A DNA stretch of 64,000 nucleotides from Terriglobia bacterium (lineage in GTDB: Bacteria > Acidobacteriota > Terriglobia > 20CM-2-55-15). Positions 58,142-63,145 of this stretch are shown here, one piece after another (the first letter of the stretch is position 1; every line of letters begins with the position of its first letter). The notes below the pieces were generated by a model. The model had not been told where the DNA came from, made no database searches, and saw only the letters and a list, made by a program, of their open reading frames with translations. Location of the stretch: the NCBI GenBank assembly GCA_965218585.1, contig CBDCLE010000025.1, positions 133,390-197,389 on the forward strand, read 5' to 3'. Both the position numbers and the translations under genes were made by a program.

Positions 58142-59878
58142 CCCGCATGTTTCACCAGTCCGGCGATCAGGGGGATTTGGGCAGTAAGAATCGGATTCGG
58201 GAGGATCTGGGTTCGAATTGGGCATGTGTGGCGTGACTCGGCGGTGTCGACAAGCGGGAGTTGCTGCGTTTTCGGGTTCAGAAGAGGGTGACGAAACGCA
58301 CTGAGACAAACCTCGGCGGAGCCGAAAAGAGCGAGTCGATTTTGGCGCAGGGGATCGGGTCGGTTCTCAGCAGCGCAGAGGAAGCGCCTGCAGGTTTCGA
58401 TGGACGAGGGCAAAGACCTCGGCGTAGGGATAGGCTTCCGACATGGAGATCCAGATGTTGCGAACCGTCAGACGGACTTGAGCTCCGATCTTGAGGAGCT
58501 TCAAGCGGATCGTCTGGCACTGAGCGCGGGCCAGATCGGTATTCTTCAGTCCCAGACGGCGTAACGCGTGCAGGAGCATGTAGGCGGCCGAGGACAGATA
58601 GAGCCGGAGTTGATTGGCGCGCATGGTTGCCGCGCTGGTCCGGTCGGCGAATAGATCCAACTGCTGTTCCTTGATGCGATTTTCCATGTCGCCCCGCGCA
58701 CAGTAAAAGTCTTCATAGAGGGCGCGGGCGTCCAGGCGTTCCGGCGACAGTGAGGTCACAACGAATCGAGGATTGGCGCCTTTCTCCAGGAACTCGGCCT
58801 TGCCGATGACGCGTCGGGTGCAGGTCCAGCTCTTCCGAGTGCGATACCGGAAATCGTTAAACACCCGCGCCGGTTTCCCGGTGTCGTTAAACTCGGCTTC
58901 GGCCTGACTCATCGATTCAGCGATCTCGCGCTTGAGCCGATCGTTCTTGGCCAGACCCACCACGTAATCGACCTGGTGGGCCTCGCACCAACTCAGCAAT
59001 TCATCCCGGCAAAAGCCCGAGTCGGCCCGGATGATAATCGACACCTCCGGCCAGCTCTGCCGGATCTGGCCGATGATGCGGTTCAATTCCTCGACGGCGC
59101 CGTCCGCACCGTCGACATTGGAGCACCGCAACCGGGCGCATAGCAGATGCTCTCCCGAAAAGATGTAGAGCGGCAGATAACAGTAGTTGCCATAGTAGCC
59201 GTGAAAGAACCGTCCTTCCTGATGGCCATGGATCGGATCATCGGTCGCATCCAGGTCCAGAACAATCTCCTCGGGCGCCGATCCGTGAGCCGCCACAAAT
59301 GCATCCACCATCCAGCGGTCGATCTTGTCCGGGTCCATGGCCATCTTCTTGTACCGCTCCTTCCCATCGACTTGCTCCCCGGTCAGTTCCAACCGGTTCA
59401 GCGTACACTTGCCCGCCAACGCTTTTCCCCGGTCTCGGGCCTGCCGCCGCTTCTCCCCCAGTGGATCGGCCTTATCCACCGCCACGGCCAGCATCGGATC
59501 GGTCCGCAGTTGGTCATGATCGTTCAGATCCTCGTAGCCCAGACAGAGTCCGTAGACGCGCTGCCCCAATAACTCGCTCACCGTGTGTTCGATCAACCTC
59601 GCGTCCCGGTAATCCCTGAAACACTCGGCCAGTCCGGCGATCAGACCCGTTCGCTTTTCCACTTCCCTCAACAGCAGAACCCCAGCGTCGGAGGTGATCT
59701 TTCCGCCGTCAAAACGCGCCTTCACTTTTCGTTGAAGAAGTCCGTGAAATTCGAACGTCGTTTGGTTACACTCTGTTCTCATAAGGGCCGTCTCCGTTTG
59801 GCTTGTTAAACGTTTATTTCAAAACGCTTTATGCCAGACAGGGCGGCCTTTTCTGGTCCTATCGGTGAAATATGCGGG
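58142..59878 (-). mobile_element. IS1380-family element; transposase at 58367-59782
   Basis: TIR CCCGCAT(G/A)TTTCACC, CTAG on both flanks; TSDAG, LDLDATDD, RADSGF, YCARGDMENRIKE. Confidence 0.95.
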
Positions 59879-60427
59879 CTAGCACCACCGATTCTGGTGG
59901 CCTGGCTGATCGACAGCGTCACGGGCAACGCGCCGGGCTGGATGTCCCCTGTGGGGTTGACCGAGATGTTTCCACAGGTGGTGTTTGTCGCCATCCTGAC
60001 CGTGGTGATCTTCGGCTTCGAGAGCCTTTCCCAGTGGGGTTACGCGTACGGCTTCATGACGATTGCGCAGGATATGCAACATCGTCTGAGAGTGGATGCC
60101 TACAGCCAGGTACAATCCCGCGAGATTCGTTTCTTCGAGGAACATCGTCTTGGCCAGACCCTGGCCATGCTCAACGACGACGTCAACCAGCTCGAACGGT
60201 TTCTCAATAACGCTTTTAACGAAATAGTCCAGCTCTGCGTCCTCGTCGTGTTTGCCGGTGCGGTGCTCTTCACGATCAGTCCGGGTCTGGCGGGGCTGGG
60301 CCTGCTGCCTTTGCCTTTCATCGTGTGGGGTAGCCTCAAGTTTTCCCAGATTCTTGAGCCCCGTTATCGCAAGGTGCGTGCCACGGTGGGCGACGTGGCC
60401 TCCCGTCTCGAGAACAATATTGGCGGT

Positions 60428-60813
60428 TCTATGGAAGGGGCTGTCAAGAGAAACACGTCCCCGCCGAGCGGACCACCGGACCCAACACTGTCGTGGCAGC
60501 CAGCCCCTGTCTCCGTTGAGACGAACTGTTGATCCGGCATCGCAGAGAAGTCGATCACTCATCACAACGTGGTGTGGTTTCGAGAAACTGAAAAGCGCAA
60601 AGGGGTCGTGATTGCCGACCACGGTTCTATCTGAGCCTCGAGGGCTATCGCTTTTCCAGGTCGTGCGAGGGGGGATAGAGTATTACATGGGCCTTCAGCA
60701 AGCGCTGTGTGCCAACCGCGTATCGGATCCTCACCCTCGACCCTACCGTTCCGACGCCTCACCGACGACGAGCGGTCGAATGCCTCGCGCTGTCGGCAGA
60801 AGTCTGGAAACGG
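60428..60813 (-). ncRNA. Putative bridge/seek RNA region of the IS1111-type element
   Basis: 386-nt non-coding end containing target matches (GTATTAC 60680-60686, GCCAA 60711-60715) and donor matches (GTTCTAT 60624-60630, GCTAT 60644-60648). RNA boundaries unknown. Confidence 0.7.
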
Positions 60814-61985
60814 CTATGTCGCCAAGTTCAGTTTCTTTGCGTTAAACGTGTCTCCTTTCTTCCACATCTTCAGTGCGGTCGCTGCAATCTTCCTCGCCAG
60901 TGTCAGCCGAGCCATCTCCTTACGCTTGCCGTCTTTCTGGAGCCCCTCCAGGTAGCTTTTCCAAGGTTCGGCCCCCATGCCTCCGGTCGCCGCCCCGATG
61001 AACACATCTTTCAAACGTCGGTTGCCGTTGCGGTTCAGTCCCCGCGTGGCGATCGGCTTTCGACGACGTACCACACGACTCCCTTCCTGCTCATACTCCG
61101 CACTCATGTGCATTGCCACGGCCAGACCGCTGTAGTTCCAGAGCTGGCGTTTGGTTCGAAATCGATGCGGGGTGTCCCCCGTCGCTACAATCAAGGCGCA
61201 ACGTATCGGTCCCAACTGGGGAATCGTCTGCAATATCCCCACCGCACGATGCTTGCGGCTCTCGGTTAACATCGCCAGCTTCGCTTTTTTTCTTAACCCT
61301 CTCAGATGATCCAGCTCCTCATACAACCATCCGGTACGCCGCCGTGCACCGGTATTGGCGAGCTGTTCGATCCAGTGTTCCCGCTGCGATGGGAGGTAGA
61401 CGCCGTGGCCCGGCGTCCGGATCCCACGTCCTCGATACATTGCCTTGATCCGAACCATCGTCCGCTGCGTATCCAGGGTCAAGGTCTCATATCCGCGGAC
61501 CAGTTCTTTCAACGTCCGCGTCGCATCGTGCCCGTGGTAGACCGACCGCAGCCATCCGGCCCGGAGCAGCTCGGCCAGTTTCAGGGCATCCACCCGGTCG
61601 GTCTTGGACCCGTCACTGAGCAGTTTGTTCCGTCTGGGATCACACACGATCACTTCGCTCACATATCCCCGGACCACGTTGTAGAGCCATTCGGCCTGCG
61701 TGGTTTCTTCAAACGTCACGTGCAGCTCACCACTCAGACTCTCCAGCAAATCAATGATTGGCCCGGCCTGGGTCTCTACGATCTTTTCCCAGACCAGTTT
61801 GCCGTCTGCGTTTAAGACCATCACCACCGTCGTTGCCTGGTGCACATCCATGCCGATATACTTGGCCTGTTTCATTTACGTGCTCCTTTGTCTTTGAATT
61901 CAACGCAGCTACGTTGAATGGGTTGTTGTCGGGAGATTTTCCTCCTGGCAACAGCCGACAAAGGGGGCGTCCTTCCTTATAGCGT
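60428..61985 (-). mobile_element. IS110 family, IS1111-type element; DEDD recombinase at 60814-61875
   Basis: YIGMDVH, FEE, KTDRVDA, C-terminal Ser domain; precise insertion in GGC GGT|ATT ACG with a shared GT core; short subterminal IR A(T/A)GGAAGG; long 3' non-coding end. Confidence 0.92.
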
Positions 61986-63145
61986 ATTACGGTCATCAAG
62001 TCCTTCACCGCTGAAGGCTACGAGGCGGATCGGGTCGAAGAGGCCAGCGAAAGCTACCGCAAGGCCAATTACCACGCGATCAAACTGAACGCCGTATTCG
62101 TCCCGATCATTCGTATGGGTATTGCGTTCGGGTTTGCGGCGATCATTGTCCTGGGCGGGTGGCTCGTCATGCAGGAAACACTGACTGTCGGCGAGCTGGT
62201 CCTCTTCTGCATGATGATTCAACGGCTGCTGTGGCCGATGACGCGGCTGGGCCAGACCTTTGACGAATATCAGCGCGCGAAGGCCAGTTCCAGACGCATC
62301 TTCGGGCTGCTGGACACGCCAGGTTCGGTTCAGGACGCCGATGACGCTGCGGCTCTTGAACGGGCGAGTGGGGACGTTGAATTCGACGACGTGTTCTTTG
62401 CATACTGGGACCGCGAGCCTGTCTTAAACGGCCTCTCGCTGAAGGTCAGGGCCGGAGAGATGGTCGGTATCGCGGGAACCACCGGTGCCGGAAAGAGTAC
62501 GCTGATCAAGTTGCTCCTGCGCCTCTACGACGTGAACGAAGGTGGGATACGGATTGATGGAGTCGATATCCGGCAACTGCGTCAACACGATCTCAGGCAA
62601 CAGATCGCGCTGGTAAGCCAGGACGTGTTCCTGTTCCATGGAACGATTCGCGAAAACATCGCTTACCCCGGCGTCGACGTGCCGCTCGAAAAAGTGATCG
62701 AGGCTTCCGCTCACGCCCAGTTCCCACGACTTTGTGGACACATTGCCCGAGGGTTACGAGACGATCGTGGGCGAGCGCGGCATCAAACTGTCCGGTGGGC
62801 AGAGGCAGCGGTTGAGTATTGCCCGTGCCTTGTTGAAGGATGCGCCGATTCTGGTCCTGGACGAGGCGACCAGCAGCGTCGACACCGAGACCGAACGCAT
62901 GATTCAGCAGAACCTCGAGGAGCTGACTGCCGGCCGGACGGCACTGGTGATCGCCCATCGCCTCAGCACAATCCGCAAGGCCGACCGCATCGTCGTGATC
63001 CGTGATGGCCAGGTCGAAGAAGAAGGCAGCCACGACGAACTGGTCACCCACGGCGGCACATACTCAGAACTGTGGGCTGTTCAAAGTGGTGGGGAACTGC
63101 TGCGCGTGTAGCCAGACGGGGCTTAGATTCAATTCGAAGGCGAAA

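Follow-up and report, generated by a model that had tools for sequence, protein, structure and literature searches.

The locus described here raises the question of whether the long non-coding end of an insertion sequence encodes an RNA that recognizes both the DNA into which the element inserts and the element's own ends and, if so, which nucleotides carry that recognition. The element lies in a 64,000-nucleotide stretch of DNA from a Terriglobia bacterium (GenBank assembly GCA_965218585.1, contig CBDCLE010000025.1, positions 133,390 to 197,389; hereafter the window, whose numbering is used throughout), where it interrupts a gene for an ABC exporter. It is an insertion sequence of the IS110 family with an IS1111-type layout. 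We consider it highly probable that the element is currently or recently active and that its right end, on the transposase strand, encodes a two-loop bridge/seek RNA matching target and donor; this estimate is a joint one for the whole explanation, in which the RNA is predicted by sequence comparison. The guide RNA reading is adopted because of two bodies of evidence, namely 16 insertion sites in one genome and the covariation of guides with insertion flanks in about 50 non-redundant relatives.

The limits of the element bear on everything that follows, and they involve two features:

60428-61985, minus strand: insertion sequence, 1558 bp long, with a GT core (AC when read on the transposase strand) at 61984-61985 counted as part of it; the core copy that belongs to the target is at 60426-60427.
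59831-60427, plus strand: 5' part of the interrupted ABC exporter gene, covering positions 11-189 of the ABC_membrane profile; profile positions 190-267 follow from 61986 on.

Read directly from the sequence, GT stands at both junctions, and the ABC_membrane profile stops at position 189 (base 60427) and restarts at position 190 (base 61986). Since the profile is continuous across the element, the limits are exact and nothing is duplicated beyond the common GT, in agreement with the original prediction of an element at 60428-61985 and an empty site ATTGGCG-GT-ATTACGG. Together with the 14-bp consensus of the 16 sites described below, this amounts to site-specific insertion without target duplication beyond the core dinucleotide, as expected of the IS110 family. 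The layout, with about 110 nucleotides upstream of the transposase gene and, as predicted, 386 non-coding nucleotides downstream of it, is that of IS1111. The genome contains 16 copies of the element, which are 99.8-100% identical, share the same ends and differ in only five alignment columns; the 353-codon open reading frame (ORF) is intact in all of them. Within a run of G residues in the left end or leader, the window copy has one G more (61963) than any of the other 15, and in copy C1:6956 a G is missing at 60669, a position in the stem that closes the target loop.

Three segments of the non-coding end are relevant for target recognition:

60715-60723, minus strand: 5' target guide, RNA AUACGCGGU, where the plus strand reads ACCGCGTAT; it replaces the GCCAA of the original prediction.
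60680-60686, minus strand: 3' target guide, RNA GUAAUAC, which would pair with the plus-strand core and right flank GT-ATTAC.
60711-60715, minus strand: GCCAA, not a guide; made up of a 1-nucleotide linker and the first bases of the inner hairpin, in which GGC and GCC pair.

The consensus of the 16 insertion sites is ATACGCG-GT-ATTAC, and the flanks share nothing beyond this 14-bp site. Reverse-complemented, the plus-strand string at 60715-60723 gives exactly ATACGCG-GT, the left flank and core of the consensus; the RNA AUACGCGGU is identical to this flank and core as they read on the plus strand and therefore would pair with the opposite strand. On the left side the 16 sites match the 5' guide at a mean of 7.25 of 9 positions, compared with 3.83 at random GT sites of the same genome, and on the right side, where ATTAC is the consensus, the mean match is 3.19 of 5 against a background of 1.06. 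Matches to both guides at 10 or more of the 14 positions were found for 13 of the 16 sites and for 0.12% of the random GT sites. Chance rates of the individual strings, estimated from 5000 dinucleotide shuffles of the 386-nucleotide end, were 0.06% for the 9-mer, 0.24% for GTATTAC, 0.64% for GTTCTAT, 9% for GCTAT and 33% for a 5-mer of the GCCAA type. GTATTAC and GTTCTAT both fall on the 3' sides of the two internal loops described below. Unoccupied 14-mers near ATACGCGGTATTAC number 0, 1 and 3 in the genome at 0, 1 and 2 mismatches, where 0.02, 0.97 and 20 are expected; these expectations assume independent bases at the given base composition and are crude, and no conclusion was drawn from them.

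According to the original prediction, the target pair consisted of GTATTAC and GCCAA and the donor pair of GTTCTAT and GCTAT, so that the RNA would match the TTGGC flank of the window copy. All four strings are indeed present at the predicted coordinates and TTGGC does flank that copy. The right target guide GTATTAC (60680-60686) was borne out by the shuffles, by the consensus of the 16 sites and by the flanks of the relatives, whereas the left target guide has to be given up. In addition to the high chance rate of GCCAA, TTGGC occurs at none of the 15 other sites, and ACGCG occupies the homologous place in 13 of the 16; within the sequence TTGGC-n-GT-ATTAC, on which the prediction had been staked, it is thus only the TTGGC segment to which the other sites are unrelated. 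As a guide GCCAA was also rejected on structural grounds, as alignment columns 32-34 pair with columns 65-67 and covary with them, which places GGC in the inner helix of loop 1. The window copy happens to sit in an off-consensus site (ATTGGCG-GT on the left, scoring 7/9 and 5/5), and the left target guide was consequently misplaced by 4-9 nucleotides. For these reasons, and for those concerning GCTAT given below, we regard the four-string version as very improbable.

The core dinucleotide shows an asymmetry of its own. At the left junction on the plus strand, which is the right end of the element, the 16 copies have GT (10), TT (5) or GC (1), and at the right junction, the left end of the element, all 16 have GT. 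In each of the six copies with unlike cores the odd core is thus at the right-end junction, and the left-end junction retains the donor's GT. In some relatives (L084, L100, L102 and L104) an odd core (GC) was seen at the opposite junction.

The predicted two-loop RNA was then compared with the insertion flanks of related elements, comprising 41 loci from genomes (almost all of them Acidobacteriota-type metagenome-assembled genomes) and 80 of at least 572 metagenome relatives. The genome relatives come from an alignment-based scan; a single-protein scan of genome contigs returned none. For the 5' guide, 65 elements in which the target loop and the right end were recognized, none of them a Blastocatellia-type locus, gave 49 distinct guide-flank pairs. 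The guide matches its own 9 nucleotides at the right-end junction at a mean of 7.35 positions, as against 4.92 in 2282 mismatched pairs; all 9 positions match in seven elements, 8 in eighteen, 7 in fifteen and 4-6 in nine. For the 3' guide, tested on 50 non-redundant elements of 60, the mean match to the element's own 7 nucleotides at the left-end junction is 5.96, compared with 3.39 in the control, and at the five non-core positions alone 4.04 matches were found with the own flank and 1.47 with mismatched ones. Fifteen Blastocatellia/Pyrinomonadaceae-type loci, in which the left-end pattern is 2 nucleotides out of register, had been dropped from this test; inspected by eye, the flank GGTCGCTAC of these loci agrees with their 3' guide GTCGCTAC.

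The closest relative, with 82% protein identity, has AUAAGCGGU in place of AUACGCGGU and adjoins ACCGCTTAT: one guide base is changed from C to A and the flank base matches, and this pair of loci is, as read from the two sequences, a one-base natural retargeting. Thus both target-loop guides covary with the two target halves, among the relatives as well as at the element's own 16 sites, and the comparison of homologues that the original prediction had proposed as its check came out in favor of three segments that track the flanks or the element end. In L040, L051 and L052 the target-loop guides are unlike the flanks (4-5/9); about 50 bp downstream of L040 lies an unoccupied GCGCTGGTCGCTC that matches both guides in the opposite orientation. 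Most relatives end their 5' target guide (alignment column 30, window position 60715) in A, which is unable to pair with the first base of the core; the window element has a U there, which pairs.

Is there a common structure on which these guides are displayed? Two regions are to be distinguished here:

60608-60742, minus strand: bridge/seek RNA core, with a target-binding loop followed by a donor-binding loop; covariance model match of 139 bits, E value 1e-33.
60745-60813, minus strand: 5' hairpin that follows the stop codon and precedes the target loop, conserved according to the minimum-free-energy fold and comparison.

The minus-strand fold of 60600-60760 contains two internal loops. Loop 1 is closed by GAGGGUGAGGAU/AUCCCCCCUC and has CCG-AUACGCGGU-U on its 5' side, an inner hairpin as a cap, and CAU-GUAAUAC-UCU on its 3' side. 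Loop 2 is closed by CGACC/GGUCG, with UGGAAAAGCGAU on the 5' side, an inner hairpin AGCC..GGCU, and CAG-AUAGAAC on the 3' side. Both fold and alignment place the target loop ahead of the donor loop on the transposase strand, as predicted originally. In the alignment of 77 distinct RNA cores, 96.0% of the cells are paired, compared with 36-49% when the partners are slid; compensatory changes occur in 13 of the 29 pairs, and the covariation score was reached by none of 500 shuffles, so that the secondary structure is conserved with compensatory changes. The variation is concentrated in the guides, the entropy of the stems being 0.2-0.3 bits and that of the guide columns 1.45 bits (5' guide) and 1.84 bits (3' guide without its core positions), and 54 distinct guide pairs occur among the 77 RNAs on one scaffold. 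The 5' hairpin has 90.2% of its cells paired in 34 relatives, compared with 33-45% when slid, with compensatory changes in only 2 of 16 pairs; these figures refer to a hand-drawn helix, of whose region RNAalifold recovered only 4 pairs. The covariance model of the core matches exactly the 16 element copies in the genome, with no orphan copies, and 9 of 150 other sampled genomes of the phylum. G055 has seven weak matches to this model, at 33 bits. In the relative L046, apparently a deletion derivative, the target loop is missing entirely from the non-coding end, together with the 5' half of the donor loop.

It might be argued that there is no guide RNA at all, the non-coding end being a 3' untranslated region, a terminator and an end-binding region with matches that arose by chance. 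The folding energy of the region is no better than that of shuffled sequences (z = +1.85 for 386 nucleotides and +0.68 for 161 nucleotides), and a search of 60000-62400 against Rfam at a permissive threshold gave only two unrelated matches at chance level (E values 1.3 and 8.9). Given such energies, the case for an RNA depends on the comparison among relatives. That comparison, with the guide-flank covariation, the covarying two-loop fold and the 16 sites fitting the guides, leaves this explanation with next to no probability in our estimation.

Recognition of the donor, that is, of the element's own joined ends, would fall to the second loop:

60624-60630, minus strand: guide on the 3' side of the donor loop, RNA AUAGAAC; the same letters make up the element's right end and core, which on the transposase strand read ..CATAGA-AC.
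60647-60658, minus strand: RNA UGGAAAAGCGAU, forming the 5' side of the donor loop; only AGCG (60649-60652) results when the register is set by homology with the target guide.

Of 65 relatives, 63 have at the position of AUAGAAC exactly the 7-mer that their right end forms with the junction core, and the remaining two differ at one base each. Among these 65, variants are shared by loop and end, AGAGAAC twice and ATAGAGC once. In a relative with four copies and a CG core, the loop has AUAGACG, the end is ATAGA-CG, and the 5' target guide ends in ..GUCG; this agreement of loop and end supports the 3' donor guide and indicates that the core itself is changeable. The right donor guide GTTCTAT (60624-60630) of the original prediction is thereby upheld.

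The left donor guide GCTAT (RNA AUAGC, 60644-60648) fared differently. AUAGC could pair with the GCTAT of the left end, and in most relatives 4-5 of the 5 positions are still pairable, which speaks for the four-string version. Nonetheless, besides its chance rate, the segment does not cover the core and enters the inner helix: its G and C belong to that helix, where the pair 115/140 is CG in 41 cases, UA in 22 and GU in 14, and relatives with the left ends GCATT, GCAAT or TATTA retain both UAG and the helix. No other register offers a convincing substitute. Over 27 distinct combinations, the best of nine registers between the 5' side of the loop and the left end pairs 0.41-0.43 of the positions, with no covariation, and the Blastocatellia-type rows of this test are unreliable. 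Better pairing in the AGCG register was observed in two distant relatives, L043 (7/10) and, by eye, G120 (8/8 with two G-T wobbles). Of the two donor guides, then, the 3' one is supported and the 5' one is not, and recognition of the left end would involve at best 4-5 bp of RNA pairing and probably relies also on the subterminal inverted repeats, which covary.

The repeats and the other features of the ends are as follows:

60433-60438, no strand assigned: subterminal inverted repeat arm GGAAGG, with its partner CCTTCC at 61971-61976; a CTAT/ATAG terminal inverted repeat precedes both.
61876-61983, minus strand: left end and 5' leader, beginning with GCTATAAGGAAGG and containing a -10-like TATAAG (61976-61981) and the repeat arm CCTTCC (plus strand, 61971-61976); the end is conserved in relatives.
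60442-60447, minus strand: -35-like TTGACA of the right end, 18 nucleotides upstream of TATAAG if the ends are joined with one copy of the core.

The inverted repeats are thus GGAAGG/CCTTCC (6 bp) plus CTAT/ATAG (4 bp), offset by 2 nucleotides; a range of 7-17 bp is quoted for the subterminal inverted repeats of the IS1111 subgroup (PMC11208160). The terminal inverted repeat was read directly from the sequence and was not among the 25 longest repeats of a repeat search. The arms vary together in relatives (GGAAGG/CCTTCC, GAAAGG/CCTTTC, AAAAGG/CCTTTT, GAGAAG/CTTCTC), a pattern that fits recognition of the ends partly by protein.

These observations bear on a simpler possibility, in which guidance of DNA is confined to the first loop, the second serves as a scaffold for protein binding and resembles the end through shared conservation instead of pairing with it, and the recombinase recognizes the ends through the subterminal inverted repeats and the flanking target halves. 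Target-only seekRNAs of 82-96 nucleotides are described as the main species bound to IS1111-family transposases (PMC11187229). The donor loop is near-invariant here (0.06 bits), so that its agreement with the end is mostly conservation, the left donor guide is weak, and the repeat arms covary with each other. Contigs from RNA libraries also touch on this point. In two runs of one study (X15 and X16), contigs from near-identical relatives cover 60654-60826 and 60654-60967 at 95-99% identity, which shows presence in an RNA library and no more. Their shared end at 60654 lies, as the RNA is read, immediately 3' of the target loop and near the expected end of a short target-loop-only seekRNA; we take this as a lead only, from a single study. 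Contig cover is missing for parts of the element in X15-X17 and X20, and such gaps say nothing on absence. Against a purely structural second loop stand the joint variants of loop and right end or core (AGAGAAC, ATAGAGC and the ATAGACG of the four-copy relative), the disagreement of only 2 of 65 relatives at one base each, and the form and strand geometry that the donor loop shares with the target loop. On balance we find target-only guidance improbable and retain the two-loop RNA.

A further idea concerns the donor loop as it stands in the relatives. Donor recognition may be only half RNA-guided throughout this Acidobacteriota-wide clade, with the right end and core read by AUAGAAC, the left end recognized mainly through the repeat, and a 5' guide decayed to at most 4-5 bp. 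Separately, inheritance of the core looks one-sided. Taken as a whole, this reading is speculative and rather unlikely. If true, one-sided core inheritance could point to a directed exchange or resolution of strands and not to a heteroduplex core that segregates at random.

The protein encoded by the element is a candidate partner of such an RNA:

60814-61875, minus strand: transposase/recombinase gene, 353 amino acids, with a DEDD RuvC-like domain and a Transposase_20 domain; candidate catalytic residues D10, E56/E57, D93, D96 and S258.

To the protein Pfam assigns PF01548 (DEDD_Tnp_IS110) with an E value of 3.4e-17 and 63.1 bits (cut-off 29) and PF02371 (Transposase_20) with 3.9e-9 and 37.2 bits (cut-off 21.3). 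Both of its domains can be aligned with those of bridge recombinases of solved structure, ISCro4 (9t56, 1.6e-9) and IS621 (8wt6, 4.2e-7); the candidate catalytic residues, among them the serine of GL-x7-S, fall on the catalytic positions of these two and are invariant in 25 homologues. The surroundings of the serine motif differ from the published G-x-x-P-x4-S-G in having V for P and A or S for G. The match to the NCBIfam model NF033542 (IS110 family RNA-guided transposase) is near full length (model positions 1-342 of 343, E value 1.6e-37), and the nearest named matches are ISAzs32 (26.5% identity) and IS621 (25.9%). Judged by these alignments, the recombinase is a divergent IS110 relative slightly below the naming threshold of NF033542.

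Several observations weigh against the explanation favored here, in addition to the folding energies and the weak left donor guide. Four of the 49 relatives match their own flank at only 4-5 of 9 positions, and two of the 16 sites match poorly on the left (3/9 and 4/9), the worst one reaching 4/14 and looking as if shifted by one base (ATACGC-GT). The serine motif reads S-A or S-S instead of the published S/T-G, the NF033542 score of 129.5 bits is below the curated cut-off of 140, and the named plasmid-borne relatives are at most 28% identical, the best at 26-28%. A promoter scan of the linear copy revealed no sigma-70-like promoter on the minus strand. Finally, the RNA-library contigs tell nothing about the strand, the ends or the level of a transcript, such libraries may contain DNA, and the target loop is covered only by contigs from the libraries of one study.

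The two-loop guide RNA, which we nevertheless prefer, suggests the following course of events, in which production of the RNA, its binding by the recombinase, the circle and its promoter, and the chemistry of the reaction are all predicted. The RNA would be roughly 135-205 nucleotides long and consist of the 5' hairpin, the target-binding internal loop and the donor-binding internal loop. In the target loop, AUACGCGGU and GUAAUAC would each pair with the 3' half of one strand of ATACGCG-GT-ATTAC, overlapping on the GT core, with the strand geometry described for IS621. In the donor loop, AUAGAAC would pair with the right end and core in the circular junction. By analogy with studied elements, the recombinase may excise the element as a circle, in which the joining of the ends would bring TTGACA to 18 nucleotides from TATAAG as a candidate circle-junction promoter. 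Both boxes, TTGACA at right ends and TATAAG at left ends, are kept in relatives, and junction promoters have been described for IS1111-type elements (PMC11187229). The circle would then insert at guide-matching sites, presumably with no target duplication beyond the common core.

The surroundings of the element contain many mobile elements. An unrelated second transposase gene (58367-59782, minus strand, 471 amino acids, DDE_Tnp_1_4 with an E value of 8.4e-158) is located some 50 bp upstream of the exporter ORF. The ATPase domain of the exporter is seemingly frameshifted too (62115-63111), as ABC_tran positions 1-80 fall in the ORF 62115-63005 and positions 99-137 in the overlapping ORF 62734-63111, which is in a different frame.

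The original prediction spoke of an intact, reprogrammable GT-core system. The intact element and the general concept stand, and reprogrammability is seen only as natural variation, in the 54 guide pairs mentioned above. The relatives in effect provide a natural reprogramming table, with one conserved scaffold of 136 positions and at least 54 guide pairs, each beside its own target. The element adds a well-documented natural case of RNA-guided recombination outside the model elements, with 16 fresh copies at known sites in one genome, and combines a compact recombinase (353 amino acids) with an RNA of about 135 nucleotides, variants of which have other core dinucleotides (CG, GC). It also illustrates how the reading of a single copy can mislead, the off-consensus site in the ABC exporter gene having given a wrong left guide. 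The mechanism is already established for IS110/IS1111 bridge RNA elements, and for specialists our data are a confirmation and no surprise; the element is a real, ordinary addition to this group.

How does the system compare with those already described? With the IS1111-type elements ISEc11, ISPa11, ISKpn4 and ISPst6, as presented by Siddiquee et al. 2024 (PMC11187229), it shares a long downstream non-coding region, a DEDD transposase of about 340-350 amino acids with a C-terminal serine motif, subterminal inverted repeats and the lack of target duplication, as well as a -35 box at one end and a -10 box at the other that would form a junction promoter. According to the same account, the transposase gene of IS1111-type elements is followed by the seekRNA, in which the match to the top strand comes 5' of the one to the bottom strand, the order being reversed in the IS110 type; in the present element the complement of the top strand ACCGCGTAT comes first, as the 5' guide AUACGCGGU, and that of the bottom strand second, as GUAAUAC on the 3' side, which is the IS1111 order. 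The differences from the elements of that account are a protein that is 26-28% identical at best, the motif GL-V-x4-S-A/S instead of GL-P-x4-S/T-G, an inverted repeat of 6 bp with a 4-bp terminal repeat, and a target that is not a repeated element.

IS621 and ISCro4, as described by Durrant et al. 2024 (PMC11208160; PDB 8wt6, 9t56), likewise have two internal loops, target then donor, whose 5' and 3' sides pair with opposite strands and both extend into a 2-nucleotide core; hypervariable guides on a conserved scaffold and the conservation of DEDD and Ser over both domains are also common to them and our element. In contrast to the systems of that description, the predicted RNA is encoded here after the gene, the guide order relative to the element is reversed, AC (transposase strand; GT on the plus strand) takes the place of CT as the core, and the 5' donor guide is weak or absent. 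A further difference from IS621/ISCro4 is that the last base of the 5' target guide is unpaired with the first core base in most relatives; identity to IS621 is about 26%. Finally, ISPpu9/Ssr9 of Pseudomonas putida (PMC12288879) is described as a member of the IS110 family that occurs in several genomic copies and in which the transposase is followed by a gene for a small RNA, a description that also fits the present element with its predicted RNA. P. putida, as reported there, has stand-alone ssr9 copies and insertion into repetitive extragenic palindromic (REP) sequences, whereas the RNA model of the present element matches only the 16 copies within elements and their flanks share only the 14-bp site.

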